Positions 28,152-57,838 of a stretch of DNA of 64,000 bases are shown piece by piece. The stretch's first letter is position 1; every line of letters starts with the position of its first letter. The position numbers and the translations under genes were made by a program. The stretch is taken from contig JAOTVV010000006.1 of the NCBI GenBank assembly GCA_029863245.1, forward strand, positions 35,362 through 99,361, given 5' to 3'. The notes beneath the pieces are model-generated. The model saw nothing but the letters and a program-made list of their open reading frames with translations. It had not been told where the DNA came from and searched no databases. Origin of the DNA: Gemmatimonadota bacterium (GTDB taxonomy: Bacteria > Gemmatimonadota > Gemmatimonadetes > Gemmatimonadales > GWC2-71-9).

Positions 28152-28649
28152 ATGAGACGCCGAGGCATGGCACCCCGGACGAGCCTCGTCGCGAGCGGCG
28201 CCCTCGTGACGATCCTCGTTCTGTCCTGTGGAGGCGGGCTCCGACCGTATCTCACCCCCCTCCCCGACGCGGTTGTCGACACGCTCGCCGCGCTACCGGT
28301 AGATGTCATTCGCGAAATCGCCACACTCGTCACGGCTGAGGGTCTCGTCATCAGAATCTCGAGCCCAGAGGAGGGATACCTCGAGACCGAGTGGTACGAC
28401 GTCGGCACGGCGGTCCCCGGGGACACGCCTTTCACCGATCCGCGTCGCAGCACCCTGCTACGGTTCTTCGCCGACCCGGAAGCTGACGAGGAAACCCGTC
28501 TGTCGGCAGAGGCCGTCGTGCGCCGTACCCTCGACCCATCGGTCCCGTCTCGACAGGGTGAAATGATGGCCCCGCCGGGACACCCGGGAAACGAGATGCT
28601 CCGTCGAGTACTCGCAGCGCTCGACAGCCGATTCGGACCGGCGCGATGA
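28152..28649 (+). CDS. Hypothetical lipoprotein
   Basis: Track ORF 28071-28649. ATG 28152 gives MRRRGMAPRTSLVASGALVTILVLSCGGG (lipobox LSC). The stop overlaps the next start (ATGA at 28646). Confidence 0.55.
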   Translation: MRRRGMAPRTSLVASGALVTILVLSCGGGLRPYLTPLPDAVVDTLAALPVDVIREIATLVTAEGLVIRISSPEEGYLETEWYDVGTAVPGDTPFTDPRRSTLLRFFADPEADEETRLSAEAVVRRTLDPSVPSRQGEMMAPPGHPGNEMLRRVLAALDSRFGPAR

Positions 28650-29884
28650 CTTTCGGCCGGCTCGGCTCGGGCTCGCCTACGCCACTCGACGGCCGGGAAT
28701 GGGACGTTGCTGTCGTGGGGGCAGGACCAGCCGGTACAACGGCCGCTCACCTCCTCGCCAAGGAAGGGCACACGGTGCTGCTGCTCGACCGGGCACCGTT
28801 TCCGCGAGACAAGGCATGCGGAGATGCTCTGATCCCCGACACCCTCAACAGCCTCAGGCGATTGGGCCTCTACGAGGAGGTCCGGCAGGTCGCCCAACGA
28901 CTCGGCACGCTCTCAGCATATAGTCCCGCCGGCATTCGGGTGGACATCCCCGGAGAGTTCCTGACGGTGCGCCGGTACACGTTCGATGCCCTGTTGCTCC
29001 AGGGCGCGGTCGACAACGGAGCCACCTTCCACGTGGCACCGGTAGTCAGCATCGACTCGCGAGCGGACCGCGTGCGTCTCACGACGCGAGACGGCCTCAC
29101 CGTTACCGCCAAGGTGGGTATTGTCGCCACCGGGGCAGATACCTCTCTCTTTCGAGGGGGCTCGACGCCCCGACCGTCTGCACCGAGTGGCGTGGCGCTG
29201 CGATGTTACGTGCGCTCGCCCGTGTCGATCGATCGCCTGATCATTTCGTACGATCGGTCGATCGTGCCCGGGTATGCATGGATCTTTCCGCTCGGTGACG
29301 GCCTGTACAACGTGGGGTGTGGCATCTTCTATCGGCACGAGCGAAAGCGGCGGATCAATCTCCGGAAGACGTTCGCCACCTTCGTCGAGACCATTCCGCA
29401 GGCGCGTGATCTATGGGAGACGCAGTGCTCTGCGACGTCGCTGGTCGGCGCAAGGCTTCGGTGCGGCCTCGATGCCTCCATGGCATACGACGGCGCTCGT
29501 GTCATTGGCATCGGTGAGGTAATCGCTACCACGTTTCCCTTCACCGGTGAAGGCATCGGCAAGGCGATGGAGACGGGAGAGATCGCAGCAGCTTCGGTAG
29601 CAGAGTCGTTGCGGCAGGGTACGACCGACGCGCTGGCCAGGTTCCCCACCATCCTCGAGCGGCGTGTCGCGCCTCGCTACAGAGGCTACCGGCGAGCGGA
29701 GAACTGGGTGGCCCAGCATTGGCTAGCGGATCTCGTGGCCAGGCGCGTGCAGCGCAGTCCGTCGCTCGGCAAGGTCGCAGCGGGCATCATGAGCGAGACG
29801 GAAGATCCGCGGGCCCTGTTCTCATGGAAGGCCATACTGCCGTCCCTGAGGACATGGCGGTCGGCCCGCCGCTCTGGTACATGA
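28646..29884 (+). CDS. Geranylgeranyl-reductase-family FAD-dependent oxidoreductase
   Basis: Dinucleotide-binding motif WDVAVVGAGPAGTTAAHLLAKEGHTVLLLDR, followed by PRDKACGDALIP. Length and layout fit the geranylgeranyl reductase / FixC-like flavoprotein family. Confidence 0.75.
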   Translation: MTFGRLGSGSPTPLDGREWDVAVVGAGPAGTTAAHLLAKEGHTVLLLDRAPFPRDKACGDALIPDTLNSLRRLGLYEEVRQVAQRLGTLSAYSPAGIRVDIPGEFLTVRRYTFDALLLQGAVDNGATFHVAPVVSIDSRADRVRLTTRDGLTVTAKVGIVATGADTSLFRGGSTPRPSAPSGVALRCYVRSPVSIDRLIISYDRSIVPGYAWIFPLGDGLYNVGCGIFYRHERKRRINLRKTFATFVETIPQARDLWETQCSATSLVGARLRCGLDASMAYDGARVIGIGEVIATTFPFTGEGIGKAMETGEIAAASVAESLRQGTTDALARFPTILERRVAPRYRGYRRAENWVAQHWLADLVARRVQRSPSLGKVAAGIMSETEDPRALFSWKAILPSLRTWRSARRSGT

Positions 29885-30951
29885 CCGTATCGATGGCGGC
29901 GCCCGAGCACAGCGGGGCGTTCTGCGATGCGCTGCTGCCCAAGGTATCCCGCACCTTCGCCATTTGCATTCGCCTGCTCCCCCCGGGACTCGACCATTCG
30001 GTTCTCGTGGCCTACCTCCTCTGCCGGATCGCGGACACCATCGAAGACAGCACCGCGCTCGATCAGACGTCCAAGGAGCGGCTGCTGCTCGCGTTCGGTC
30101 AGGCTGTCGGGGATCCGAGAGATCCCGCGGAGTCGGTTCAGGAGGCCTTTCCGAATCCGACGAGCGACGAAGAGCGCCTCGCGCACCACGCCAACCTGGT
30201 GCTACAGGAGTTCCGCCAGCTATCGGAGACACAACAGGTGGCCATTCGGCCCTGGGTGCAGGAGATGAGTCGAGGTATGGCGGAGTTCACCCGACGCAAG
30301 GGCGCCGCGCGCGCCGCGCAGCTTGAGGCCCTCGGCACGGTCGCCGAACTGGACCGGTACTGCTACATCGTTGCCGGTACCGTCGGTCACCTCCTCACCG
30401 AGCTGTTCTATCTCCACTCCGGCACGTGGAGCCGTGCACGATACGATCGCCTCACGGCTCGCGCGACGAGCTTCGGACTGGGACTCCAACTGACCAACAT
30501 CATCAAAGACGTGGCCGACGACCGCCGGCGCGGATGGAGCTTCGTGCCCCAGGAGCTGTGCCAGCTGGCGGGCATCACGCCGGACGAGCTGCACGACGGA
30601 CGCCACACGGCGGCGGCGCTCCGGGTGATGCACCTGCTGATTGCCAAGGCCAAATCCCACCTGCTCGATGCACTGGAGTACTCGACGCTGCTTTCGCACC
30701 GGCAGTACGGGATCCGGCTCTTTTGCCTCACCTCTCTGTACTTCGCGGTCCAGACACTGCACCTCGCCGAGCGAGACGACCGGCTCTTGGACCCCGATCA
30801 CAAGGTGAAGATCACCCGTCCCGAGGTGCTGCGGACGATCGCGATGTCTCGGATCGTGGCCCCGAGCAACGCGGCAGTCCGTTGGTACTTCCGTCGCCTC
30901 GCGGGAGCCGCTTGGTCTCGAGAGCCGATCCCGGCCGTGCCAGCTACCTGA
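29881..30951 (+). CDS. Squalene/phytoene synthase-family head-to-head prenyl diphosphate condensing enzyme
   Basis: Track ORF 29719-30951. ATG 29881 overlaps the upstream stop (ATGA). Motif LLPKVSRTFAICIRLLP. Both Asp-rich motifs are present: LLCRIADTIEDS and NIIKDVADDRRRG. Confidence 0.8.
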   Translation: MTVSMAAPEHSGAFCDALLPKVSRTFAICIRLLPPGLDHSVLVAYLLCRIADTIEDSTALDQTSKERLLLAFGQAVGDPRDPAESVQEAFPNPTSDEERLAHHANLVLQEFRQLSETQQVAIRPWVQEMSRGMAEFTRRKGAARAAQLEALGTVAELDRYCYIVAGTVGHLLTELFYLHSGTWSRARYDRLTARATSFGLGLQLTNIIKDVADDRRRGWSFVPQELCQLAGITPDELHDGRHTAAALRVMHLLIAKAKSHLLDALEYSTLLSHRQYGIRLFCLTSLYFAVQTLHLAERDDRLLDPDHKVKITRPEVLRTIAMSRIVAPSNAAVRWYFRRLAGAAWSREPIPAVPAT

Positions 30952-33995: not shown

Positions 33996-34020
33996 TCGAC
34001 GGCTTCGCGAAGCGTCGAGC
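33972..34020 (-). terminator. Candidate intrinsic terminator that reads correctly only on the minus strand
   Basis: On the plus strand: A8 (33972-33979), then GCTCGACG (33980-33987) ... CGTCGAGC (34013-34020). On the minus strand this is an 8-bp GC stem with a structured 25-nt loop, followed directly by U8. Confidence 0.3.
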
Positions 34021-34066
34021 AGACCTGCGCGGAAGTGTCTCGGCAAAAATGACGTCGAAAAAACTA

Positions 34067-34095
34067 TTGCGTATCCGTTCATCATTCTTTATCGT
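34067..34095 (+). promoter_or_regulatory. Candidate sigma70-type promoter of the ATP-grasp/GNAT/KamA operon
   Basis: -35 TTGCGT (34067-34072), a 17-nt spacer, then -10 TATCGT (34090-34095). It sits in a locally AT-rich gap. RBS TGGAG lies 5 nt before ATG 34128. Confidence 0.3.
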
Positions 34096-34107
34096 GTTGC
34101 GCAACAC
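34094..34107. promoter_or_regulatory. Perfect 14-bp palindrome GTGTTGCGCAACAC, candidate operator
   Basis: Exact inverted repeat that overlaps the end of the putative -10 and the expected transcription start, 21 nt upstream of ATG 34128. Confidence 0.35.
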
Positions 34108-34127
34108 ACACTCGTTCTTGGAGTTCG

Positions 34128-35210
34128 ATGCGCATCGCACTCGCGTTCAACCAACGTCCGGAAGACGTCGTCGCCGATCACGGCGGCGACCGCCGGACCA
34201 CCTTCGAACCGCTCACCGACGAGTACGTCGAGTGGGATGACGCCGAGACGATCGCGGCGGTGCGCGACGCTCTCCAGGTCTTCGGGGACGTCGTGCCCCT
34301 CGAGGCCGTGGGCGACTTCCCGTGCAAACTCCGCGACGCCCGGGTGGACTTCGTCTTCAACATGGCTGAGGGCCACAGTGGTCCGAACCGGGAGGCACAT
34401 GTCCCGGCGATGGCCGAGTTCTTCGGCATTCCCTATCTGGGGAGTGATCCGCTCACGCTCGCGATCGCGCTCCACAAGATCCGGGCAAAGGAGGTCTTTC
34501 GGCAGCGCGGGGTGCCGACGCCGCCGTTCACCTGGATCGATTCCGAGGCTGATCTGTCGGTGCTGCGGAACGGGCATCCCTACCCGGCGTTCCTCAAGCC
34601 GGCCTGGGAGGGCTCCTCTAAAGGAATAGCGGAGGCCAACTACGCACGGACCCCGGCGGAGGCGGTCGAGCGCGCGCGGCATCTGCTGGAGGCCTATCGC
34701 CAGCCCGTTCTCGTGGAAGCGTTCCTCCCAGGTGAGGAGTTCACCGTCGCCGTCATGGGGAACGGGCTCGACGCGCGGGCACTGCCGCTCATCCGCTACC
34801 GGTTCGACGGCCTGCCGCCCGGCGCACTCCCCATTATGGGCTACGAGGCCAAGTGGAAGTGGGACGTGCCCGACACGCCGCTCGAGGTGCTCGAATGCCC
34901 CGCGGCGGTCGATGAGGAAGCCGCCGAGGCGGTGCGTCACACCGCCCTCGCCGCCTACCACGCCCTGGGCTGCCGCGACTGGGCTCGCGTCGATGTCCGA
35001 CTGGATGCCAGCGGTGCTCCACACGTCCTCGAGGTCAATCCCCTGCCCGGCATCATCCCCGACCCGGCAGCGAACAGCTGCTTCCCGCGCGCGGCGTGGA
35101 CGGCCGGGATGACCTACGACGACCTGATCCAGTCGGCCGTGCGGATCGCCTGGCGGCGGGTCACCGGTGGGGAACTCGCATCAGAACCCGTTTCAGGAGT
35201 CACGCACTGA
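34128..35210 (+). CDS. ATP-grasp ligase, D-alanine--D-alanine ligase-like (paralogue 1)
   Basis: Motifs MRIALAFNQ...VDFVFNMAEG...AEFFGIPYLGSDPLTLAIALHKIRAKEVFRQRGVPTPPF...FLKPAWEGSSKGI...EEFTVAVMGN...WARVDVRLDASGAPHVLEVNPLPG. This is the Ddl-type ATP-grasp layout. Confidence 0.8.
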   Translation: MRIALAFNQRPEDVVADHGGDRRTTFEPLTDEYVEWDDAETIAAVRDALQVFGDVVPLEAVGDFPCKLRDARVDFVFNMAEGHSGPNREAHVPAMAEFFGIPYLGSDPLTLAIALHKIRAKEVFRQRGVPTPPFTWIDSEADLSVLRNGHPYPAFLKPAWEGSSKGIAEANYARTPAEAVERARHLLEAYRQPVLVEAFLPGEEFTVAVMGNGLDARALPLIRYRFDGLPPGALPIMGYEAKWKWDVPDTPLEVLECPAAVDEEAAEAVRHTALAAYHALGCRDWARVDVRLDASGAPHVLEVNPLPGIIPDPAANSCFPRAAWTAGMTYDDLIQSAVRIAWRRVTGGELASEPVSGVTH

Positions 35211-36217
35211 ACATCGCGGCGATCTACGACGGCGGCGCAGAGAGCTGGAGTCCGGAGGACATCCGGGCCGTGCTCGCATCCGTCGCCACCGTGAGCCGCG
35301 TGCTAGAGACGGCGGGTCACGAGGTGACGCGCGTCTCCGTGCAGCCCGACCTCGCGTGGTTCGGCTCCGTGCGGGAGGCCGACCTGGTATTCAACCTGTG
35401 CGAGGGGGTCGGAGGCGTCAGTCGCCTGGAGGTCAACGTCGCCTCGATGATGGAACTGGCGGGGATTCCCTTCACCGGATGCTCGGCCTGGACGATGGCA
35501 GTGTGTCACCGCAAGCCGCTCCTCAACGCGTTCCTGGCGTCGCGGGGAGTGCCGGTTCCGCGCTGGCACGTCCCGGAAGGGGCGGCGGCCGTGCCCGACG
35601 ACTTCCCGCTCCCGGCGATCGTGAAGCCGGCCGCCGAAGACGCGAGCATCGGGATCGAGCAGGGATCGGTGGTCACCAGCCCCTCCGCCCTCCGCGATCG
35701 GGTGGCGCTGGTGCGGGAGCGGCATGGGACGGCCATCGTGCAGCAGTACATCGCCGGCCGGGAGCTGGCGGTGGGCTTCGTCGGTGACGGCATCCTCCCA
35801 CTGTCGGAAATCGACTTCACCCACCTGCCGGCCGGCGCTTGGCCGATCGTCTCGTTCGCCGCGAAGTGGCTCGAGGCGAGCCCGGAGTTCGCCGGGACCC
35901 AGCCGGTCTGTCCTGCGGACGTCGACGCCGACCTGGCCAACCGTATCGTGCAGATGGCGGCCTTGGCATGGCAGGCCGTCGAAGGTCGGGGATACGGGCG
36001 AGTCGATCTTCGGGTGGATGCGGATGGGAATCCCTGGGTCCTGGAGGTCAACCCCAATCCAGACCTCTCGGCCGACGCGGGGTTGGCGAACATGGCCCGA
36101 GCGCGTGGCTGGAGTTACGACCGGCTGGTGCTCCAGATCGTCGAGGCGGCTCGCAGTGGGCGGAGACAAAGCCCGGCCGTGCCGATCACTTCGACGCGTG
36201 AGGTCTCGCTCGCATGA
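35207..36217 (+). CDS. ATP-grasp ligase, D-alanine--D-alanine ligase-like (paralogue 2); start codon unresolved (CTG?)
   Basis: Track ORF 35096-36217. Homology to paralogue 1 begins at LNIAAIYDG (compare MRIALAFNQ). Between 35096 and that point there is no ATG, GTG or TTG in frame. CTG 35207 lies 7 nt after AGGAG and overlaps the upstream stop (CTGA). Motifs: ADLVFNLCEG, MELAGIPFTGCS, IVKPAAEDASIGI, GRVDLRVDADGNPWVLEVNPNPD. Confidence 0.75.
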   Translation: MNIAAIYDGGAESWSPEDIRAVLASVATVSRVLETAGHEVTRVSVQPDLAWFGSVREADLVFNLCEGVGGVSRLEVNVASMMELAGIPFTGCSAWTMAVCHRKPLLNAFLASRGVPVPRWHVPEGAAAVPDDFPLPAIVKPAAEDASIGIEQGSVVTSPSALRDRVALVRERHGTAIVQQYIAGRELAVGFVGDGILPLSEIDFTHLPAGAWPIVSFAAKWLEASPEFAGTQPVCPADVDADLANRIVQMAALAWQAVEGRGYGRVDLRVDADGNPWVLEVNPNPDLSADAGLANMARARGWSYDRLVLQIVEAARSGRRQSPAVPITSTREVSLA

Positions 36218-36735
36218 GCACCGCCGAGACGACCGTGACGATCGGCCCACTGCGGGCTGAAGACCGGGAGCGCGTCCGCGCGATGGTCGAGGCCACGCGT
36301 GTCTTCCGCTCCGACGAGATCACCGTGGCCCTCGAAGTGTTCGACGACCACATCACCCGTCCCGGCACCGACTACCACGCGATCGGCGCCTTCGACGATG
36401 ACGGACTGGTGGGCTTCACCCTATACGGTCCGACCCCTTGCACCAGCGCCACGTGGGATCTCTACTGGATCGTCGTCGATCCGGCGGCGCACCGACACGG
36501 GGTCGGTCGCAAGCTCATGGATCACACCGAACGGAACATCCGGATGCGGAAGGGGCAGCTGATCGTGGTTGAGACGTCGTCCCGCGACGACTATGGGCCG
36601 ACCCGGGGGTTCTACGATTCGATCGGGTACACCCGTGCTGCGCACATCGCGCAGTACTACGGTCCTCAGGACGATCTGATCGTCTACACCAAGCATCTCG
36701 CTCCTCCCGCAAAAGAGATGGCACACCATGGCTGA
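36214..36735 (+). CDS. GNAT-family N-acetyltransferase
   Basis: ATG 36214 overlaps the upstream stop (ATGA). The acetyl-CoA binding motif A is WIVVDPAAHRHGVGRKLMDH. Length is 173 aa. Confidence 0.85.
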   Translation: MSTAETTVTIGPLRAEDRERVRAMVEATRVFRSDEITVALEVFDDHITRPGTDYHAIGAFDDDGLVGFTLYGPTPCTSATWDLYWIVVDPAAHRHGVGRKLMDHTERNIRMRKGQLIVVETSSRDDYGPTRGFYDSIGYTRAAHIAQYYGPQDDLIVYTKHLAPPAKEMAHHG

Positions 36736-37921
36736 ATGGCAGAAGCTCCTCCACGAGCGCGGTGTCCGCACGCTCCAGCAGCTCGTCGAACGGTTCGGGC
36801 CGGAGCACTTCCCAGACCTCGAGCGCCTTCAGCAGGCGGTGGACAACTTCGAGTTCCGGATCTCCCCCGCCATGGTGGACCTGATCCAGAAGCCCAATGA
36901 TCCGATCTGGCGGCAGTACGTCCCCGACCTGCAGGAACTCGAAGTCGTGGATGGCGTACTGGACAGCCTCAACGAGGAAGGCGACAGCCCGGTGCCCAAC
37001 ATCACGCACCGGTATCCGGATCGGGCGTTGTTCCTCGTGAGCCCGGTGTGCGCGTCGTACTGCCGGTTCTGCACCCGACGCCGCAAGGTGGGGGATCCCG
37101 AAAAGATCTCCATGGCCCAGCTCGAATCGAGCTTCCGGTACCTTCAGGAGCATGAAGAGATCCGCGACGTGATCCTCTCGGGTGGGGATCCTCTGCTTTT
37201 GTCGGATCGGCGACTCGATGCGATCCTCGGCCGGCTGCGCAAGATCCAGCACATCGAGGTCATCCGGATCGGTAGCCGCATCCCGTGCCATCTCCCGGAG
37301 CGGATCACCCCGGAGCTCTGCGCAGTGCTGAAGAAGCACCACCCGTTGTACATCAACACCCACTTCAACCACCCGGCCGAGTTGACGCCCGCTGCGGTCA
37401 AGGGACTGGGCATGCTGGCGGACGCCGGAATTCCGCTAGGGTGCCAGACGGTACTCCTCAGCGGCGTGAACGACGATGTCGACGTCATGAAGGAGCTCAT
37501 GCAGAGGCTCCTCGTCGCGCGCGTGCGCCCGTACTACATCTTCATGTGCGATAACGTGGCCGGCGTGGAGCACTTCAAGGCCACGGTCGAAAAGGGCCTC
37601 CAGATAGTGAAGGGCCTCCGTGGCTGGACGAGCGGGCTCGCCGTTCCCCACTTCGTGATCGATGCCCCGGGTGGTGGCGGCAAGATTCCCCTGCTCCCGG
37701 AGTACGTCGAGTCGATCACGGACGACGAGATCGTGCTCAAGAACTATCGCGGCCAGCGCTACGTGTACCCGCAGGCCCGGTCGGAGGTGTTGGTCGCGGC
37801 CGGCGCAGCCGAGCCGGAGTACGAGCTGATGTCGCTGTTTGGCGACGAGCCATCGCCGGGATCCCCGCGGCCGCGTTCCCGCAACGGCACCCGCAAGGGG
37901 GCAAAGAAGAAACGCACCTAG
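36728..37921 (+). CDS. KamA-family radical-SAM / PLP amino acid 2,3-aminomutase (lysine 2,3-aminomutase-like)
   Basis: Overlaps the GNAT gene by 8 nt. Motif NITHRYPDRALFLVSPVCASYCRFCTRRRK carries the CxxxCxxC cluster. FVIDAPGGGGKIPL carries the PLP-lysine motif. The C-terminal tail is basic: SRNGTRKGAKKKRT. Confidence 0.9.
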   Translation: MAEWQKLLHERGVRTLQQLVERFGPEHFPDLERLQQAVDNFEFRISPAMVDLIQKPNDPIWRQYVPDLQELEVVDGVLDSLNEEGDSPVPNITHRYPDRALFLVSPVCASYCRFCTRRRKVGDPEKISMAQLESSFRYLQEHEEIRDVILSGGDPLLLSDRRLDAILGRLRKIQHIEVIRIGSRIPCHLPERITPELCAVLKKHHPLYINTHFNHPAELTPAAVKGLGMLADAGIPLGCQTVLLSGVNDDVDVMKELMQRLLVARVRPYYIFMCDNVAGVEHFKATVEKGLQIVKGLRGWTSGLAVPHFVIDAPGGGGKIPLLPEYVESITDDEIVLKNYRGQRYVYPQARSEVLVAAGAAEPEYELMSLFGDEPSPGSPRPRSRNGTRKGAKKKRT

Positions 37922-37949
37922 AGCGGCCTGCTGGCCGCTCTAGGTGCGT
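37912..37949. terminator. Perfect 17-bp hairpin between convergent genes (factor-independent terminator candidate, no U tract)
   Basis: ACGCACCTAGAGCGGCC (37912-37928), loop TGCT, GGCCGCTCTAGGTGCGT (37933-37949). It contains the aminomutase stop TAG (37919-37921) and ends 3 nt before the EF-G-like stop (37953). Confidence 0.45.
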
Positions 37950-37952
37950 GCC

Positions 37953-40058
37953 CTATCGGCCGTTGTCTTCTTCGAGTTGCTGCTTACGCTGCTCGCGGAC
38001 CTTCTCCGTGACGTCGGGCGGCACTTCCTGATAACTCGACAGTGACCAATGGAAGCCGCCCCGCCCGTGGGTCATCGAGTGCAGCTGGGTGGCGTACCGA
38101 TACAGCTCCGCCTCGGGAACGTACGCGCGCACTTTCGTCAACCGACCGTCACGCTCACTCCCCAGAATCTGCCCACGGCGGGAGGACAGGTCTCCCAAGA
38201 CCTCCCCCAGGTTGTCTTCCGGCGTCCACACTTCGACTTCGAGGATGGGCTCGAGCAGTACCGGCTTGGCGTTGGCCGCGACGTGCCGGAACGCCATGAT
38301 GCCGGCCATCTTGAACGACTGCTCGCTGCTGTCGACGTCGTGATAGGAGCCGTCGTAGCACTCGGCCTTGAAGTCCACAACCGGGAACCCGGCCGTCACG
38401 CCTCGCGCGGCTGCCTCCTGGATACCCTTGTCCACGGCCGGAATGTACTTCGACGGAATGACACCGCCCTTGATCTTGTCTTCGAACTCGTACCCCGACC
38501 CGCGCGGTAAGGGAGCGATCCGAATCCAGCAGTCACCGAACTGACCGCGACCGCCTGTCTGCTTCCTGTGCCGCCCCTGACCTTCGGCCTTCCCCTTGAA
38601 CGTCTCGCGATAGGCAATCCGCGGCTGGCCGAGCTCGGCATGGACACCGAACTTCCGCTCGAGACGCCCAACGATGATCTCGAGGTGGCGCTCGCCGCGC
38701 CCGCCGATCAGCGTTTGCCGCAGCTCTGCGTCGTAGCGGTGGTGGAAGGTCGGGTCTTCTTCGTGGAGTTTGTGCAGTCCGGTCGAGAGCTTGTCCTCCT
38801 CCCCGCGCTGCTTGACCTGGATCGACAGCACGGTCAACGGCTCGGGGAACGGGATCTTCGCCAACACCACCTGCGAGGCCTCGGTCGAGAGCGTGTCGTT
38901 GGTGTGGGTGTCCTTGAGCTTCGCAACGACCCCGATGTCGCCGACGTGGAGCATCGGGACCTCTGTCCGATCCCGCCCCTGCGCGATGGACAGATGGTTC
39001 AGCTTCTCCGACAAGCTGCGCGGAGCGTTGAACACCTCTGCGCCGTTCCTCACACTCCCGGCGTGGATTCGGAAAAAGGACACGTCTCCGACGTGCGGCT
39101 CCGACACGGTCTTGAAAACCTGTGCCACAAATGGGGACCCGTCGGCCGGGGTGAGCTCCACCGGCGTGGCCGCTCCCCATCGTTCGGCAACGACCGGCGG
39201 ACGCTCGGTCGGCGCGGGGACCAGCTCGGCGAGCTTCGACAACAATGCCTTGATCCCGTACGTCAGCGTCGCCGAGCCGCAGAGCAGCGGACAGATCTCT
39301 CCAGCGGCAACGCCCTGCTTCATCGCGTCGATCGCCTCCTCCCTCGTGATCTCCTCGCCCCCTAGATACCGCTCCAAAAGATCATCGCTGGTCGTGGCAA
39401 TCGTCTCTATCAGATCCTTCGAATACTGGTCGAACCGCTCCTGATATTCGGGCGGGATATCGACCTCGTCATACTCGCCGGTCTTGGTGCCCTTCTTATA
39501 GAGATGGCATTTCCTGGAAAACAGATTGATGATCCCGTGGAAGTCCGGCCCCTCGCCGACGGGAATCTCGATCGGGACCACCTTGGCGGTGAGATGGTCC
39601 TTGATGTCCCGATACACTTTCTCGAAATCGGCGTTGTCCTTGTCGAGCAGCGACAGGAAGAACAGTCGGGGCAGGCCACGCTCGGTTGCGTACTCCCACA
39701 CCTTCTCGGTGCCGACCTCGACACCCGACGTGGCACCGACCACGACCAGCGCGGCATCGGCGGCCGACATGCCGGCCAGCGCGTCGCCAATGAAGTCCAG
39801 ATAGCCAGGGGTGTCGATCAGGTTGATCTTGACGCCATTCCACTCAGCATGGGCGAGCGCCAGGCTGATGGAGTACTGTCGATCGATTTCGTCGGGAGTG
39901 TAGTCAGTGAGGGCAGTCCCCTGCGGGACCGAACCATGCCGTGTACTGGAGCCGGCCACGAACGCAAGCGCATCGACCAAACTCGTCTTCCCACTCGCGC
40001 CGTGGCCGACCACCGCGACGTTGCGGATCCTATCTCCTGTGTAGACCTTCACGGTCAC
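37953..40058 (-). CDS. Elongation factor G paralogue (EF-G2-like translational GTPase)
   Basis: G1 motif VAVVGHGASGKTSL, G3 motif LIDTPGYLDF, and full five-domain length (701 aa). The gene is not in an rpsL-rpsG-fusA-tuf context. Confidence 0.85.
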   Translation of the reverse strand: MTVKVYTGDRIRNVAVVGHGASGKTSLVDALAFVAGSSTRHGSVPQGTALTDYTPDEIDRQYSISLALAHAEWNGVKINLIDTPGYLDFIGDALAGMSAADAALVVVGATSGVEVGTEKVWEYATERGLPRLFFLSLLDKDNADFEKVYRDIKDHLTAKVVPIEIPVGEGPDFHGIINLFSRKCHLYKKGTKTGEYDEVDIPPEYQERFDQYSKDLIETIATTSDDLLERYLGGEEITREEAIDAMKQGVAAGEICPLLCGSATLTYGIKALLSKLAELVPAPTERPPVVAERWGAATPVELTPADGSPFVAQVFKTVSEPHVGDVSFFRIHAGSVRNGAEVFNAPRSLSEKLNHLSIAQGRDRTEVPMLHVGDIGVVAKLKDTHTNDTLSTEASQVVLAKIPFPEPLTVLSIQVKQRGEEDKLSTGLHKLHEEDPTFHHRYDAELRQTLIGGRGERHLEIIVGRLERKFGVHAELGQPRIAYRETFKGKAEGQGRHRKQTGGRGQFGDCWIRIAPLPRGSGYEFEDKIKGGVIPSKYIPAVDKGIQEAAARGVTAGFPVVDFKAECYDGSYHDVDSSEQSFKMAGIMAFRHVAANAKPVLLEPILEVEVWTPEDNLGEVLGDLSSRRGQILGSERDGRLTKVRAYVPEAELYRYATQLHSMTHGRGGFHWSLSSYQEVPPDVTEKVREQRKQQLEEDNGR

Positions 40059-47819: not shown

Positions 47820-50800
47820 TCAGGCTCGACCTTCCGCACTCCCGAGCGGCTGGTCAATCGCCTCACGGACCTTGCCCAACAACTCCGCCACCGTCCACGG
47901 TTTCCGAAGAAACGGCACGTCTCGACCTTCCGGTCGCGCCTTGGAAACGTCTACTTCGGAGTACCCGCTCGTAAAGAGGAACTTCACGGCGTAGCCCCGC
48001 GTTTGGGCAGCTTCGAACAGCTGCATGCCACTGAGCTTGGGCATGACGAGGTCGGTGATGACGAGGTCGAGACTCGGCCCGTGATCGCGCAGGAACTCCA
48101 TCGCCTGTTGGCCGTTTTCCGCCGTGAGCACCCGGTATCCCTGCCGTTCCAGGATTCGCTGCACCGACCGCCGGATGGCCGCCTCATCCTCCACCACCAG
48201 GATGGTCTCTGTGCCGGTGGGCATGTCCTCGGACACCGCGGGCTCCGGGAGCACCTGCTCTTCGGTCGATGTCGGCACGTAGATCCTGAAGGTCGTGCCG
48301 AGCGCGGGCTCGCTGTACACGTTGATGTAGCCGGCGTGCTGCTTCACTAGTCCATAGACCATGGCGAGGCCAAGGCCCGTCCCTTGCCCCTGGGGTTTCG
48401 TCGTGAAGAACGGCTCGAAGATCCGCTCACGCGTGCGGGCATCCATCCCGGTCCCCGTGTCGCTCACCGACAGGCATTCGTACTCGCCTGGGACCCCCCA
48501 CCCGTGCGTCGTCCGATACTGCTCGTCGAGGGCGGCGTGGCGCGTCTCGATCCGGAGCACGCCACCTGCCGGCATCGCATCGCGCGCATTCGTCGCGAGA
48601 TTGAGCAGGATCTGCTCCATCGCACTGGGATTGGCATGGGCGAATCCGGCGTTCCCGGTCTCCAAGCGAATCTCGATGTTCTCGGGAAGCAGGCGACGGA
48701 GCATGGTCGACACCTGCCGGACGAATTGGCTCAGGTCCAGCGGTGACCGGTCGAGCTGTTCGCGACGGCCGAACGTCATGAGTTGCTTGATCATGTCGGT
48801 GGCGCGTCGCGCGGCCTTGCCGATCTCGTCGACGTCCTGGAGCACCTCGGTCTGCTCCGGCGGCAACGATTCCTGCAGCAGCTCCGTATTGGCCAGAATG
48901 GCAGTGAGGATGTTGTTAAAGTCGTGTGCGATACCGGCAGTGAGCTGGCCAACGGCCTCCATTTTTTGCGCGTGCCGCAGTTGGCTCTCCAGAGCCCGAC
49001 GCTCGGTGATGTCCTCGGCCACCATCTCGAAGTACTGCGCCCGACCGTTCGTGTCGTGGACCGGCCGGCCGCTGAGCCGCACCGCGAACAGGCTCCCGTC
49101 CTTGCGCCGCCACGTCGCCTCCACGCCGTCGATGCGATCGGCACCCGAGAACTCCTTGACGAGCCTGGCGCGCTCGGCTGCCCGGGCATAGACCTCTTTG
49201 GCCAAGTCGAGCTTCAGGACCTCTGCCTCGTCGTCGTAGCCGAGCATCTCCACCAGCGCTGGATTGGCCGCGAGGAACCTCCCTTCGGGACTCGAGCGAT
49301 AGATGCCGTAGAGCGCATGATCGATCAGGGCTCGCAGGCTCGACGCCGACTGCTTGAGCGCGGCCTCCGCCTTCTTGCGCTCGGTGATGTCACGAATGAC
49401 CCAACTGAAGAACTGCTGTCCCTGCACCTCCCACGATCCTACCGATATCTCCACGGGGAGCGTCGACCCGTCGCGTCGCCGTCCCACCGCCTCGATGATG
49501 CTCCCCGAGAGATCCATCGGCGCCACAGGTTGCTCGGGGGCCTCGGGGTCGCTCTCGGTCGGCTTACTAGATGGATCCGGGATGAGCTTCGCGATCGGCA
49601 GCAGGTGCATCTCGGCGCGGGAGTAGCCAAAGACCTGCTCCGCCGCATGGTTGCAGAACACGATGCGTCCCTGCGCGTCCGCGACGAGGATGGAATCGAC
49701 GGCCGATTCCGCCACGGCCCGGAACCGGTCCTCCCGCTCCCGCAGTGCTTCCTCCGCCGCCTTCCGCTCGGTCACATCGTGTGCCACCCTGATGAGGAGA
49801 TTGTACGGACCTTGGCTGTCGGTCCATTCCAGGCGCCGTTGCTGCCCTCGAACATCCACCACGACCCGCTCGTACGGACGGTCTCCGAGTGGCTCGCGGC
49901 CCGCAGCCTTCGACGCCACGAGGGTTTGCTCCCGCTCTCGTTCTTGTGGGTCGCTCACTGTCAGACGCCACCACCCATCTTCCAAGCACTCGTGTGGATC
50001 CAGGCCGAGAATCCGTCGCACCGACGGACTGACGTACCGAATCTCCCCGGTATCGTCAGCCACCACCACGAGATTTCCTACCGACTGCAAGATGCTGTCG
50101 GAGAGGCGCATCTTTGCTTCTGACTGTCGCCGTCTGGTGATGTCCTCCACCATGGCCACGACGAATTGCAGATTACCCTGCTCGTCGAGCAAGAGGGAAA
50201 GGGTCAGTCGCCCCCAGACCAGTGACCCGTCCTTGCGTAGGTACCGATTCTCGAGCACACCCACGGGCTGTCCTGTCTCGATCATCCGTCGCTTGAGCTC
50301 GAGCACTTCGGCGTAGTCCTTGGGATGACTGACGTCGGCGAGGGTCATCGCGAAGAGTTCATCCCGCGAATATCCGAGAAACCGTTCGATCGCCTCGTTG
50401 CAGCTCACGAACATGTTCTCGGGATCGACGATGGTCACGCCGATCCCAGCTCCCTCGAATACGGCTCGAAATCGATCCTGACTCTCTTTGAGCGCCTGCT
50501 CAGCCCCTCGGCGCTCGGTGATGTCTTCGCCGGACGAGAGCGTCCCCATCGGGACCCCATTGCTGTGCCGCAGGACGACGTTATGCCACGCGATGAGGCG
50601 GCGGGCGCCGCTGCGGGTCAGGATCGCGTTCTCGTAGTACTCCGGCAGGCCACCATCTCCCGACATCGCCGCCTCGAACACCGACCGAACGGTTTCCACT
50701 TCGTCCTGCGGCAGACAGGTCTCGAACCAGGGTTTCCCCACGATGGCCGACTCGCGCTCGTAGCCGAGAAGCCCGAGGCCTTTGCGGTTGACCAGTGCCA

Positions 50801-51359
50801 CCTTCCCCTGACGGTCTAGTCCTACGAAGATGACTTCGGCGAGGTCGAGATACTGCTGCGTTTGGCTCCACACCCTGCGCAGCTCTTCGGCCGACCGCGG
50901 GCGCTCGGTGATATCCCGGACGGCGAGCATGATGCAACCGAACGCGGGGTCGGCGAGCCGGTTGTTGCCGAGCACCTCGACCTCTCGCCAGGAGCCGTCG
51001 GCGTGCCGCACGCGGAGTTCGCGCGGCGGAGCCGAGCCCGTCTGTTCGAGCCCCTCCGCAAACGCCTGCTTGGCTCGAGGAAGATCGGTCGGATGCACCA
51101 GATCGAAGACGCTCTGGCCGACAACTGCGCTCTGTGGGTAACCCAACACCGCCGTGATCGCCGGGCTGACGTACGTGACGCAGCCAGCCTCGTCGAGCAT
51201 CACGACGATATCTCGGTCGAGCGCGAGTTCGACGACGGCCTGCCAGTCTAGCTGTCGATCCGGCCGGTCAGGTACCGTCTTGTGGGTTGGCCTGCGTCGC
51301 CACCACGCCAGCATCGGCACCGCTGCGGCTAGCACCGCTCCCAGATCGGCCGCGCTCAC
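47820..51359 (-). CDS. Hybrid sensor histidine kinase: 1 TM, about 6 PAS domains, HisKA, HATPase_c, REC
   Basis: By eye there are six PAS cores, for example [77 protein letters not shown] and [16 protein letters not shown]-box [14 protein letters not shown]-box [23 protein letters not shown]...LVITDLVMP. Confidence 0.9.
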
Positions 51360-51385
51360 GGGGTGCGTGTCTCCACTCCGCCTCC

Positions 51386-51781
51386 CTACCGCGATTCGGC
51401 GGCCATCACCAGCAGAGCCGCGAGGGCGGCCTCGAATTCGGTGGACTTGTCGAAGAAGTACGCTGCGCCGAGGGCGCGACAGCGTGTGCGGTAGGCTGCA
51501 TAGGGAAAGTTCGTCAGGACCATCACCTTGGGCGGCGAATCGAACTCCTGCAGGCGCTGCAGAACCGTGATGCCGCTCAGTCCGGGCATGCGGATGTCTA
51601 AGATGACGACATCAGGCTTCGTCTCCTGTGCCACCACCAACCCCGTCTCACCGTCCGATGCCTCGCCGACGACGTTCACGGCCTCGACCTCGGCGAGCAT
51701 CGCCACCAGTCGCTGCCGGATGACATCCGAGTCATCGACGATCAGCACGCTCAGCACTCGCCCACCTATTGCTGTTGCCAT
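51386..51781 (-). CDS. Single-domain (CheY-like) response regulator
   Basis: Track ORF 51386-51820, with the start moved to ATG 51781. REC motifs are VLIVDDSDVIRQRL and PDVVILDIRMPGLSG. No output domain. Confidence 0.85.
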   Translation of the reverse strand: MATAIGGRVLSVLIVDDSDVIRQRLVAMLAEVEAVNVVGEASDGETGLVVAQETKPDVVILDIRMPGLSGITVLQRLQEFDSPPKVMVLTNFPYAAYRTRCRALGAAYFFDKSTEFEAALAALLVMAAESR

Positions 51782-51952
51782 ATGGTTTTTCCCACCCAAG
51801 TGCCATGGTATCCTCCTCATGGGACGATAGCCTGCGGGCGGGACAGCGCGCAGTAAGCTCGGGACGGGTGAGGTCGTACGAAGAGGGGAGCGGACCCGGT
51901 CGGTCGAGTCCGACGCGTGTAGGGAATGTCTTACATGGCGAGCGTTAGCCGG

Positions 51953-52585
51953 TCAGGCCGTCAGTCCCTGCTCGATGGCATAGCGAATCAGTTCCGCGGT
52001 GGTCTTCAACCCGAGCTTGTTCAGGACCCGTGCCCGGTACGTGCTCACCGTCTTCGGACTCAAGGACATCTCGGCCGCGATTTCCTTGAGGCTCGTACCG
52101 GCGCCGAGACTCACGAGAACCTGATACTCCCGCTCCGATAGCCGATCGTGCAGGGGCCGATCGTACTCCGGATCGAGCTCGAAGGCCAAGGCTTCAGCCA
52201 GCGTCGAGGTCACGTACCGTGCACCCTGGTGGACACGCCGAATGGCTTCCGCCAACTCGCCGGGCGTGTGGTTCTTCGTCAGATAGCCGGCGGCTCCGGC
52301 CCGAAACGATCGCAGCGCGTACTGGTCTTCGGGGTGCGCGCTCACGACAAGCACTCGCAAGCGCGGATACGTCGAGCGCAGACGCTGCATCATCTCGAGA
52401 AACGGCAGGCCGGGCATGGAGATGTCCAGCAAAAGGACGTCTGCTGTCACGTCCTGCAGGAGTTCCTGAAGGCGATCGCCGTCAGCCGCTTCGCCCACGA
52501 CGGTCATGTCGGGATGCTCCGCGACGATGCGATGCAATCCCTCGCGAACGATCGGATGATCGTCGGCAATCACCAGACGAATCAC
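51953..52585 (-). CDS. NarL/FixJ (LuxR-type HTH) response regulator
   Basis: Track ORF 51953-52975. GTG 52585 overlaps the upstream kinase stop (GTGA). REC motifs are IRLVIADDHPIVREGL and VLLLDISMPG. The LuxR HTH is LSEREYQVLVSLGAGTSLKEIAAEMSLSPKTVSTYRARVLNKLG. Confidence 0.9.
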   Translation of the reverse strand: MIRLVIADDHPIVREGLHRIVAEHPDMTVVGEAADGDRLQELLQDVTADVLLLDISMPGLPFLEMMQRLRSTYPRLRVLVVSAHPEDQYALRSFRAGAAGYLTKNHTPGELAEAIRRVHQGARYVTSTLAEALAFELDPEYDRPLHDRLSEREYQVLVSLGAGTSLKEIAAEMSLSPKTVSTYRARVLNKLGLKTTAELIRYAIEQGLTA

Positions 52586-55500
52586 GGGGACCCCTTTTCT
52601 CGCCCGACGCGTGACAGGGGTAGACTCGCCCGCACGATCGTTCCGGCCCCGTCGCTGGACTCGATGTCCAGTGTGCCATCGAGCGCTGCGGCTCGCTCTC
52701 GCATGCCGATGAGACCGAGTGACCGAGTCCCGTCGAGGTTCAGTGCTGCGATGCCCTGCCCGTTGTCGTGCACCTCGAGCACCATGGCCCGGTCGCTGGT
52801 CCGCAGATCCACGACGACCTGGGATGCCTGCGAATGCCGGATGACGTTGGTGAGCGCCTCCTGCAAGATGCGGAAGAGGGCGGTGGCGCCGTCCCGGTTG
52901 ATCTCGACCTCCTCGACGTGTGCCACCACCTGGACCCCACTGCCAGCGCGACGCTGGAAATCGGCCGCCTGCCACTCGACAGCCGCCGAGAGGCCAAGAT
53001 CATCCAGCACCGACGGTCGGAGCCGAGATGACAGGTCACGCACCACATCGATGGTCTCGTCCACCAACGTCGTGAGCACCTGTCCACGCGCTCGCACCGC
53101 TTTCCAGTGCTTGGGAAACCGTCCAATGAGCCAGGTCAGATCCATCTTGATGCCGGTCAACGCCTGGCCGAGCTCGTCGTGGATCTCCCGTGCGATGGCT
53201 GTCCGCTCCTCCTCACGAACCGCTTGGAGCCGTGCCGCGAGTTGACGAAGTTGCTCTCGGGACCGGCGGACGGCCTCCTCTGCCCGCTTCCGCTCGGTAA
53301 CGTCGGTCGCGAACCACAGCATGTGACGCTCACCGTCGAGCTCGATGAACTCCGTAGAGAGCTGCACATCGTGGATGCCGCCAAGGCGGTCTCGCACCTG
53401 GCGGTCGACCCGCCGCATGCGCCCCGACTGCCGCAGTGCGTTCAACCAGGCTTCGCGCTCCCCCTCGTCTCCCCAAAAACCGAGGTCCGCTGCAGAATGC
53501 CCCACGGCCTCCTCTCGGGAATAGCCAGACAGCTTGGTGAACGCCTCGTTGATCTCGACGATCCGGCCATCGGTCGCTCGAGTGATGGCGATCGCGTCGG
53601 GGCTGAGCCCGAAGGCCTTGCGAAGGCGCTCCTGCGACGCCTGCAGCGCTTCCTCGGCCTGTTTGCGCGCGGTGATGTCGTAGAACGTCGTGTACGCCCG
53701 GTACGGTTCCGTCTCGCCCACGCGAAACTCCGGCACCGCGTTGATGTCGATCCAGCGCTGTCGCTCGCTCCTGGGATGGTAGACGCCCATGATCACGTTG
53801 CGGACAGCCATTCCGGTGCGCAGCGCCACCATGGATGGATGCTCGTCGGCCGGGAACGGCGAACCATCCTCACGCACCGATCGCCAACGGGGATCGGCAA
53901 AGGTTCGACCTTCCATCTCCGCCAGCGTGAGGCCGAGAATGCGCTCAGCGGCCGGATTGACGTCCACGATCACGCCCTTCCCATCCTGATACGTAACGCC
54001 TTGTGTCATGGTCTCGAACAGACGACGATGCCGTCCCTCGCTCTCGCGGAGCGCTGTGAGGGTCTCCATGCGCTCGGTGACGTCACGTGCTACCCCGAAC
54101 ATGCGGGTGACTCGCCCGTCAGCGTCCATCTGGGGCACCACTCGGTCTTCCATCCACCGATACTCTCCCGAGTCACGCTGCCGCAGACGGTATTCCCGGG
54201 TCACTCCCTCGCCGCTCTCCAGGACCCGCATCGTGGTCTCCGCGACTCGCTCTCGATCGTGAGGATGAACGGCCTGACCCCAGAGCTCGGGGTTGCGCAC
54301 GAAATCCTCACTGGTATACCCCAGAATCTGCTGCGTCCGGTCGGAGACGAACGTCACGGTGCCGGCCATGGGCTGTGCGGGGTCGATGTCGACTGCGTAG
54401 ACCACCTCGTCAATCTGCGCGAGCACCATGCGAAACTGCTCCTCACTCTCGCGCAACCGGAGTTCCGCCTGCTTGCGATCGGTCACGTCGATCTGGATGC
54501 CGTACATGGCGATGGGCTTCCCGTCATCGTCACACCGGATGCGCCCCCTGTCTCTCAACCAACGGACGGTGCCGTCGGGCCACCGCACGCGGTAGTCGGT
54601 GTCGAGGTCGCGCCTCCCGGCGACGGCATCCTCGACGTCTCGTTGCGCCGCGGCGCGGTCGGCCGGGTGGACGCTCTCGAGCCACCGTGTATAGCTGGGC
54701 TCCACCGAGTCCGGCTCGAATCCCAACAAGCGGTAGTTCTCTTCCGACCACGATACGGCGTTGGTTTGCATGTCCCAGTGCCATGCGCCCGCCTGCGCCG
54801 CTGCCAGTGCCTGTCGGAGGCGCTCCTCCCGATCCTGCAGTGCGGCTTCGGTACGTTTCCGGCTCGAGATGTCCTGAACGATCGAGAGCAGCGCGGGCTG
54901 GCCGTTGAAGAGCACGGGCTGGATGTTCATTAAGCTGTCGTAGAACCCTCCCCGCCTCCGCTTGAAGCGCACTTCATGCTGGCGGACTGCACCTCCCTCT
55001 GCGAGCGCATGGAAGACGCGCTCTCGATCGGCGGGATCGTAGTACAGGTCGGCGACGGTCTCCATCTGCTCGATGTCATCCGTCCCGTAGCCACCCGGCT
55101 CGAGCATCGCTGGGTTGAACGCCAGGAGATGCCCTTCGGTATCCGCGATGCCGATCCCTACCGGCGAGTGCTCGAACAGGATCCGGTACTTCTCCTCGCT
55201 CTCGCGGAGAGCGCTCTCTGCGCGCTTGCGGTCCGTCACGTCCTGGATCGACCCTCGCAGACCGCGGACCTGGCCGTCGGGCCCCATGACGGCCTCCCCA
55301 CGACCCAACACGTGCTGTACCGAGCCGTCCGCGTGGAGGAGTCGGTGCTCGAACTCGAACGGTTGCCCGGTACGTTCGGCTCGCTCGATGAGCCGCTCCA
55401 CATGTTCTCGGTCGTCGGGATGAAACGTCTCCAGAAAGTGCGCGTGCGATGGCCGCGTGTCTTCCGGGACACCGACAAAGCGATACATCTGCTCCGACCA

Positions 55501-56529: not shown

Positions 56530-56569
56530 GTCATGCGCCTGTGGTTGAAGAACATGCTACGTCCCAATC

Positions 56570-57700: not shown

Positions 57701-57838
57701 TCCGAAAACCCCCAGTTACCGGCGGACCTGCGCACACCCGAGATCATACCAACGTAGGGCCCTGCGGAAGATGAGGGCAACGATGCAGGCGCGCGCACCC
57801 TGAGACGCGGTGGCGAGGGGGGCGACGGTCCGCTGGCC

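Follow-up and report, generated by a model that had tools for sequence, protein, structure and literature searches.

The stretch of DNA examined here (the window; 64,000 nucleotides (nt), in whose positions all coordinates are given) carries at 34128-37921, on its plus strand, an operon of four overlapping genes that encode two Ddl-like ATP-grasp ligases (ligases 1 and 2), a small GNAT acetyltransferase and a KamA-family aminomutase. On balance, and judging from the sequences, we favour the view that these four genes are a self-contained biosynthetic operon for a small β-lysine-derived amide, or pseudo-peptide. The enzymes and their chemistry are familiar; their combination is conserved and widespread and is without an assigned product.

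Gene organisation and conservation in Gemmatimonadota

A preliminary reading of the window made from sequence only (the sequence-only reading) had described a chain of four co-oriented genes joined by overlaps, and both the open reading frame (ORF) coordinates and the sequence agree with that description. The ligase 1 stop and the ligase 2 start share a CTGA (35207-35210), the ligase 2 and GNAT genes overlap in an ATGA at 36214, and the GNAT and kamA genes overlap by 8 nt at 36728. The ligase 2 frame is open from 35096 to 36217, and the true start of the gene is most likely the CTG inside the CTGA overlap, because the conserved N-terminus (M/V/L)(K/R)(I/V)x(I/V)(I/L)YDGGAxDW begins exactly at the NTGA overlap in about 75 related loci, in which the start codon at this same position is ATG, GTG, TTG or CTG depending on the genome. 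Automatic gene calls put the start 63 nt later, at GTG 35270 (315 amino acids), and drop the first β-strand. The motifs that the sequence-only reading had picked out as signatures of the aminomutase (CASYCRFC and PGGGGK) and of the two ligases (LEVNPLPG and LEVNPNPD) are all found in the translated ORFs.

A ligase 1 profile, run against one genome per species, matched 235 times; the best 80 matches, all from Gemmatimonadota, were examined. The order lig1-lig2-GNAT-kamA is intact in 73 of these loci, the other seven end at contig edges, and there was no counter-example. The neighbourhood is thus conserved in relatives, as had been expected of a real system, in 73 of 73 Gemmatimonadota loci of sufficient length, and it is found in other phyla as well. 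Identity across the Gemmatimonadota set is 75-86% for KamA, 52-77% for the ligases and 42-68% for GNAT. The genes flanking the operon vary, and thyA and folA, which adjoin it in the window, are gone in a distant subgroup. The operon is vertically inherited across Gemmatimonadota. Because the overlaps are conserved, the gene order is kept while the flanks change and the same genes recur elsewhere in a different order, we regard the four genes as one functional unit. Gemmatimonadota metagenome-assembled genomes supply close homologues of KamA and ligase 1, and in several metagenomes there are contigs whose KamA gene is identical and whose neighbouring genes are nearly so (99-100% identity).

The two ligases

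Ligases 1 and 2 are paralogues of each other (35% identity, E 2e-40), as had been proposed, and both score under all Ddl/Van cut-offs. Against the Ddl model NF002378 (cut-off 243) they reach 163.7 and 141 bits, respectively, and against TIGR01205 (cut-off 245.65) 138 and 127 bits. In E. coli DdlB numbering, ligase 1 keeps all nine residues that serve ATP and Mg binding and catalysis (K97, K144, E180, E187, K215, R255, D257, E270 and N272) and ligase 2 keeps eight, position 180 being Gln; by this residue test, both are predicted to be ATP-grasp amide ligases of the active type.

The residues of the D-Ala site are replaced in both proteins. H63 has become Glu, Y216 has become Trp, and L282 is Cys in ligase 1 and Gly in ligase 2, which also replaces S150, G276 and S281. 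The resulting signatures, E63/S150/W216/G276/S281/C282 for ligase 1 and E63/A150/W216/D276/A281/G282 for ligase 2, represent two subtypes, A (S/T150, G276, S281 and D/C282) and B (A/G150, W216, D/C276, A/G281 and G282). Position 63 is Glu in all members compared, and position 282 is Asp in most other type A members.

Among solved structures, the ligases are most closely related to Ddl enzymes and then, distantly, to an L-amino-acid ligase. E. coli DdlB matches only these two genes across the window, and no mur or fts genes occur among the annotated neighbours in the window or in the related loci examined. A housekeeping Ddl is therefore rejected by the model cut-offs, the replaced substrate-site residues, the tandem or fused arrangement (see below) and the lack of cell-wall context in these loci, and the earlier suggestion that the ligases are not obviously the cell-wall ddl and stand outside a mur or fts context holds on both counts.

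A more distant tandem Ddl-like ligase (724 amino acids; locus L092, 8001-11432) adjoins a Peptidase_S58 gene of the DmpA/β-aminopeptidase family, with no KamA at that locus. This pair may belong to a related system for the synthesis and hydrolysis of β- or D-amino-acid peptides.

The aminomutase

KamA exceeds the cut-off of its family model TIGR00238 (284.6 bits against 199.2), carries the Pfam domains Radical_SAM and LAM_C, and matches the solved lysine 2,3-aminomutase 2A5H with E 2e-108. Its best-scoring specific model is the AblA equivalog TIGR03820, at 431.3 bits with a cut-off of 525.4. Scores also fall below the cut-offs of the glutamate 2,3-aminomutase equivalog (388.8 bits, cut-off 650), the arginine aminomutase model (319 bits, cut-off 600) and the EpmB equivalog (229.3 bits, cut-off 369.3), and an identity as any of these three enzymes is rejected.

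In 2A5H numbering, the protein keeps the CxxxCxxC motif (C125, C129 and C132), the lysine that binds pyridoxal phosphate (PLP; K337), Arg134, Asp293 and Asp330; R134, D293, D330 and K337 do not vary among the KamAs linked to the cluster in any lineage examined, fusion proteins included. In 2A5H, Asp293 and Asp330 bind the ε-ammonium group of lysine, and Lys and Asn replace this pair in glutamate 2,3-aminomutase; the window KamA has the Asp pair. Since the Fe-S motif, the PLP lysine, Arg134 and both Asp residues are retained, the product of KamA is likely β-lysine, which these active-site residues make the best-supported candidate. A full C-terminal multimerisation domain with its Zn site was not found in KamA: LAM_C is matched only at positions 2-60 of 127, and the equivalent of the Zn-site residue Cys268 is Asp.

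The acetyltransferase

The GNAT protein scores above the gathering thresholds of Acetyltransf_7 (42.7 bits, threshold 27) and Acetyltransf_1 (35.7 bits, threshold 20.7). It is homologous to PDB 2R7H (E 3.7e-31), which is the GNAT of the Oleidesulfovibrio alaskensis G20 cluster described below, a structural-genomics entry without established function that was deposited as a 'putative D-alanine N-acetyltransferase'. The best NCBIfam match is RimI, at 35 bits and below its cut-off. The AblB model TIGR03827 is absent from the NCBIfam matches at E ≤ 0.01, and AblB was rejected as the identity of this protein on that ground.

Related clusters in other phyla and gene fusions

The O. alaskensis G20 locus has the order sigma-54 activator, kamA, ligA, ligB, GNAT. 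Desulfovibrio mangrovi has the same four genes in the order kamA-ligA-ligB-GNAT plus a GNAT::deacetylase fusion, and a Woeseia contig carries kamA, one intact ligase gene, a shorter ligase-like ORF, a deacetylase gene and a GNAT gene. Two long metagenome contigs (L088 and L090) show the arrangement kamA-ligA-ligB-(DMT)-GNAT::deacetylase-GNAT with an MFS gene alongside, and on one further contig a KamA::ligase fusion is followed by an MFS gene and then by a second ligase gene. MFS or DMT genes lie inside or adjoin the cluster in L088, L090, L091 and L165.

Metagenomes were also scanned with the GNAT family as anchor, and 27 of the loci obtained reach at least 7 kb beyond the GNAT gene on its upstream side. 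In 19 of them KamA, A, B and GNAT follow one another in this order; the remainder have KamA, B and GNAT (two loci), A, B and GNAT without KamA (three), B and GNAT (one) or GNAT alone (two). A deacetylase gene is found in 13 of the 27, and 3 of 31 loci is the most that any other flanking family reaches. The deacetylase domain is nearest to acetylpolyamine amidohydrolases (E 4e-66). Its recurrence argues for a small molecule as the target and for an alkyl-amine, such as the ε-amine of β-lysine, as the site of the acetyl group. The window yielded no homologue of the deacetylase, and neither there nor in the Gemmatimonadota loci was a transporter gene called in the operon or next to it.

The fused GNAT::deacetylase proteins are about 580 amino acids long (L085, 8629-10386; L088, 6268-8004; L090, 6250-7980) and combine a weak N-terminal GNAT domain with an acetylpolyamine-amidohydrolase-like domain; no NCBIfam model matched such a protein.

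We also surveyed fusions among the 150 best cluster representatives of ligase 1 (clusters at 50% identity), which include 32 tandem ligase-ligase proteins and five KamA-ligase fusions. Eleven of the 20 tandem fusions that were typed are clearly A followed by B, and the ligase domain is type A in all five KamA fusions. These fusions speak independently for joint action of the A and B ligases and for type A as the partner of the aminomutase. An Acidobacteriota contig and one other contig have an A::B fusion and then GNAT, and KamA is missing from the vicinity. The deepest core of the system is thus the ligase pair together with GNAT, to which the supply of β-lysine in cis is a frequent and not a universal addition.

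A proposed pathway

The substrates, order of steps, product and role that we infer for the operon, whose gene content, conservation, fusions and retained catalytic residues are described above, would be as follows. The KamA-family enzyme would convert L-lysine into β-lysine, as its active-site residues suggest. The type A ligase would take β-lysine or its acetylated form as one substrate and make a first amide bond through an acyl-phosphate intermediate, and the type B ligase would make a second one, with A presumably acting before B. GNAT would N-acetylate one amine on β-lysine or on the product, and so cap or protect it or neutralise its charge. The inputs would be lysine, acetyl-CoA and ATP, and the partners would be further β-lysine or a proteinogenic amino acid; common metabolites are proposed as partners because no dedicated precursor enzymes are needed for them. 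In other phyla, the deacetylase makes the acetyl group look removable, and MFS or DMT transporters would let the product leave the cell.

For the Gemmatimonadota, a cytoplasmic role of the product, as a compatible solute or a polyamine-like cation, fits best, because the window yielded neither a deacetylase nor a transporter gene and the operon has passed down vertically. The transporters suggest export in some other lineages. The occurrence of the deacetylase and transporters in relatives leads us to favour a small molecule over a protein modification, which were the two options that the sequence-only reading had left side by side; its reading of the operon as an N-acylated β-amino-acid-type pathway gains support, and none of the checks run on identity, conservation and prior description refuted it. 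In a bolder and tentative form, to which we lean somewhat less than halfway, the module, with or without the deacetylase, would make an undescribed class of metabolites, N-acetylated β-lysine oligo-amides ('peptidic polyamines') or a new compatible solute, that would belong to the core physiology of Gemmatimonadota and be spread through sediments and soils, Desulfovibrionales included. An ATP-grasp-based system for protein β-lysylation in place of EpmA is the rarer alternative.

Several points weigh against the β-lysine amide pathway. The Asp pair of KamA would also suit another basic amino acid, and the specificity of the ligases cannot be read from sequence. KamA-free ligA-ligB-GNAT sets (three of the 27 metagenome loci, the Acidobacteriota locus and one other contig) indicate that β-lysine may not be obligatory for the module family. 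A dispensable metabolite pathway would not usually show so high a conservation as that of KamA, whose identities of 75-86% compare with 52-77% for the ligases. The function of GNAT could be one of self-protection or regulation instead of biosynthesis, and we found no salt-related or other regulatory signal that ties the operon to a physiological role.

Promoter region, leader and 3' hairpin

The gap upstream of the operon (33996-34127) had been said to hold a palindrome, and in fact holds two, GCTTCGCGAAGC (34002-34013) and GTTGCGCAAC (34096-34105). The former lies just past the folA stop and is not conserved in relatives. The latter directly follows a promoter-like pair (Table 1), and together these two elements are kept in Gemmatimonadota relatives while the remaining intergenic sequence diverges. 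A scan with a sigma-70 consensus called no site in the gap; we consider the TTGCGT-17-TATCGT pair a putative promoter solely on the basis of its conservation, and GTTGCGCAAC a candidate operator. No Rfam family, such as a riboswitch, reached its gathering score anywhere in the window.

The short 5' leader contains complementary segments that may control translation of the operon. The structure that they form is weak in the window itself (−6.3 kcal/mol, z −0.3) and strong in relatives (in L010, −11.9 kcal/mol, z −5.5), and an AACTCC..GGAGTT leader repeat recurs in many relatives (in the region seen upstream of the ligase 1 gene in L005-L055). The distant Gemmatimonadota subgroup L056-L084 has a terminator-like hairpin, GACCGC-N4-GCGGCC followed by T7, about 30-60 nt upstream of the ligase 1 gene, 3' of a TATTCT box and immediately before the Shine-Dalgarno (SD) sequence. 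This hairpin may act as an attenuator, or it may terminate the upstream gene.

The perfect 17-bp hairpin that had been noted after the operon is present as described, and it either serves the operon jointly with the convergent gene for an EF-G paralogue (37953-40058, minus strand, 701 amino acids) or belongs to the latter. It covers the last kamA codons and has its T-rich tail on the minus strand, and for these reasons it also, or mainly, would terminate the EF-G-like gene. In the region 37900-37953, the A-rich codons of the Lys-rich tail of KamA (KGAKKKRT) are the complement of the T-tract of that terminator.

Table 1. Coordinates of the operon genes and of the neighbouring regulatory features in the window
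Feature	Position	Strand	Evidence and details
Promoter-like pair TTGCGT (34067-34072)-17 nt-TATCGT (34090-34095), then palindrome GTTGCGCAAC (34096-34105)	34067-34105	+	Sequence and conservation
Short 5' leader	34106-34136	+	Anti-SD ACTC pairs with SD GGAG(T) at 34120-34124; CGCA pairs with UGCG across the ATG
Ligase 1, type A Ddl-like ATP-grasp amide ligase (predicted)	34128-35210	+	360 amino acids; Pfam Dala_Dala_lig_C, E 5.6e-33
Ligase 2, type B Ddl-like ATP-grasp amide ligase (predicted)	35207-36217	+	336 amino acids; CTG start; Pfam, E 2.8e-28
Small GNAT acetyltransferase	36214-36735	+	173 amino acids; Pfam Acetyltransf_7/1/10; homologous to PDB 2R7H
KamA-family radical-SAM/PLP 2,3-aminomutase	36728-37921	+	397 amino acids; lysine-type active site; shortened C-terminal domain
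Perfect 17-bp hairpin between the convergent kamA and EF-G-like genes	37912-37949		Arms 37912-37928 and 37933-37949

Genomic setting

The window is ordinary Gemmatimonadota chromosome, with gyrA, an isocitrate or isopropylmalate dehydrogenase gene, and thyA and folA directly upstream of the operon; the EF-G paralogue, dehydrogenases, a permease, a Na+/H+ exchanger and large PAS histidine kinases are among the further genes. In most Gemmatimonadota loci, including those that have lost thyA and folA, an EF-G paralogue is only a few kb away from the operon. A functional link between it and the operon is rejected, the neighbour being absent from all non-Gemmatimonadota loci examined, and its proximity is probably synteny only.

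A 311-amino-acid ORF antisense to ligase 1 (34089-35024, minus strand) has a third-position GC of 0.72, the lowest among the filtered ORFs, and is a shadow ORF of the GC-rich coding strand and no gene. At 28646-30951, an FAD-dependent oxidoreductase gene (lycopene-cyclase- or geranylgeranyl-reductase-like) and a squalene/phytoene-synthase-family gene, upstream of a D-lactate/glycolate-oxidase-like gene, may be an isoprenoid or carotenoid pair. Three PAS-rich histidine kinases (1179, 1315 and 1163 amino acids, two of them hybrid) are encoded on the minus strand at 47820-61330, with a single-domain response regulator gene and an M50 protease/CBS gene interspersed.

Alternative explanations

The same chemistry might serve a secreted product, for instance a cationic oligo-β-lysine-like antimicrobial or a metal- or surface-binding compound with a bioactive or scavenging function, in which case acetylation would be self-protection and deacetylation activation. 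The pairing of GNAT with a deacetylase suits such a protect-and-release logic, as do the MFS and DMT genes in or next to some clusters. β-Lysine is a known constituent of streptothricin-type antibiotics. It is likewise found in negamycin-type antibiotics (bioRxiv 10.1101/2025.05.27.656397). Nevertheless, a transporter recurs in only 3 of 31 loci, the window and Gemmatimonadota loci have none called in or beside the operon, the window has no deacetylase homologue, and the conserved core synteny, with thyA-folA upstream, and the phylum-wide vertical inheritance are atypical of antibiotic clusters; we therefore consider an exported metabolite unlikely. It seems more doubtful still that the ligases place β-lysine or a short β-lysyl chain on a protein lysine or a C-terminal carboxylate, as an ATP-grasp counterpart of EpmA/EpmB on EF-P or of RimK/LysX, with GNAT acetylating the adduct. 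RimK and LysX are known protein-modifying ATP-grasp enzymes, the conservation of KamA is extreme and resembles that of a housekeeping protein, a translation GTPase paralogue lies nearby in most Gemmatimonadota loci, and the C-terminal domain of KamA is shortened as in YjeK/EpmB (PMC2821294). However, the EpmB model is matched at only 229 bits against a cut-off of 369, the operon itself contains no efp, EpmA-like gene or small carrier ORF, and the EF-G-like neighbour is missing from all non-Gemmatimonadota loci. Moreover, the accessory deacetylase resembles enzymes that act on small molecules (acetylpolyamine amidohydrolases), transporters are embedded in some of the clusters, and the nearest solved relatives of the ligases (Ddl and the L-amino-acid ligase) are small-molecule ligases.

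That the operon builds an alternative dipeptide, possibly with β-lysine, into peptidoglycan or another envelope polymer strikes us as quite improbable, even though D-Ala-D-Ala, D-Ala-D-Lac and D-Ala-D-Ser ligases are the characterised enzymes to which both ligases are most closely related and 2R7H was deposited under a D-alanine acetyltransferase name. The DdlB residues that hold D-Ala1 and D-Ala2 are replaced, no mur, fts, van or racemase genes are present in the window or the related loci examined, and the KamA fusion and the acetylpolyamine-type deacetylase are unparalleled in wall synthesis. We give hardly any credence to a plain Abl-type function. AblA is the top specific model for KamA (431 bits), and KamA with GNAT is the known abl logic (PMC1224877). 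Against this, the AblA score is under the cut-off of 525 and GNAT has no AblB match, on which grounds an AblA/AblB identity was rejected; the ligases are translationally coupled to the other genes, co-conserved across phyla and fused to KamA in some lineages, and no lysine-fermentation family is found among the called neighbouring genes. We thus retain the synthesis of a small β-lysine-derived amide as the preferred explanation of the operon.

Prior description and significance

A survey of the full-text literature found no description of this gene set, although a purely computational mention is possible, for example in the 2009 amidoligase survey (Iyer et al.). None of the papers in it that name both 'aminomutase' and 'ATP-grasp' is about this cluster. 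The gene set therefore does not match a pathway characterised in that literature, in line with the earlier impression that it could not be assigned to one.

The module is fixed across Gemmatimonadota, a poorly cultured phylum, and recurs in Desulfovibrionales, Woeseia, Acidobacteriota and many metagenome contigs. Identification of its product would give PDB 2R7H a function and would correct thousands of 'D-alanine--D-alanine ligase' and 'lysine 2,3-aminomutase' annotations. It might also bring to light a new β-amino-acid metabolite that matters for stress physiology in soils and sediments, and it would supply two new amide ligases for which β-amino acids are possible substrates. O. alaskensis G20 is culturable and genetically tractable, and the presence of the cluster in this strain makes it experimentally accessible.

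Comparison with known systems

The operon shares parts with several known systems and differs from each. AblA and AblB make the osmolyte N-ε-acetyl-β-lysine in methanogens and some bacteria (PMC1224877). As in that pathway, a KamA-family lysine 2,3-aminomutase and an acetyltransferase are encoded in one operon, and the Asp pair is kept; unlike in it, KamA lies below the AblA cut-off, the GNAT is a 173-amino-acid protein of the 2R7H family, and two ATP-grasp ligases are integral. With the Ddl/Van ligases, the two ligases share fold and family (Dala_Dala_lig_C) and have largely kept the ATP, Mg and catalytic residues, but their substrate-site residues are replaced, they are a pair of paralogous subtypes and they have no cell-wall gene context.

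A resemblance of logic only links the operon to Ngg/AsnO, which make N-acetylglutaminylglutamine amide, and to NAT8L/RIMKLA, which make N-acetyl-aspartyl-glutamate. In both, an acetyltransferase and one or more ATP-grasp ligases turn common amino acids into small N-acetylated peptides. The ligases there belong to the RimK/GshB branch and no aminomutase takes part, whereas here there are two Ddl-like ligases and the β-amino acid is supplied in cis; in addition, Ngg fuses GNAT and ATP-grasp in one protein, and the GNAT and ligase genes are separate here. In EpmA/EpmB, a KamA-family enzyme with a shortened C-terminal domain likewise supplies β-lysine for an ATP-dependent ligation, but the ligase is a LysRS paralogue and not an ATP-grasp enzyme, the EpmB score of the window KamA is far below the cut-off, and no EpmA or efp gene is present among the called or annotated genes of the window.

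The closest parallels for an aminomutase next to a ligase come from natural-product clusters. BlsG and BlsI of the blasticidin cluster are one pair of aminomutase and ATP-grasp enzyme. Another is encoded by pboF and pboG in the Pseudomonas syringae Pbo cluster (PMC8473136), and the negamycin neg cluster combines β-lysine formation with an ATP-grasp enzyme (bioRxiv 10.1101/2025.05.27.656397). In all three, as here, a KamA-family aminomutase adjoins an ATP-grasp ligase that presumably couples the β-amino acid. Those clusters, however, are large and lineage-restricted and have many tailoring genes, whereas the operon described here is a minimal module of four to five genes that crosses phyla and is vertically inherited in Gemmatimonadota.

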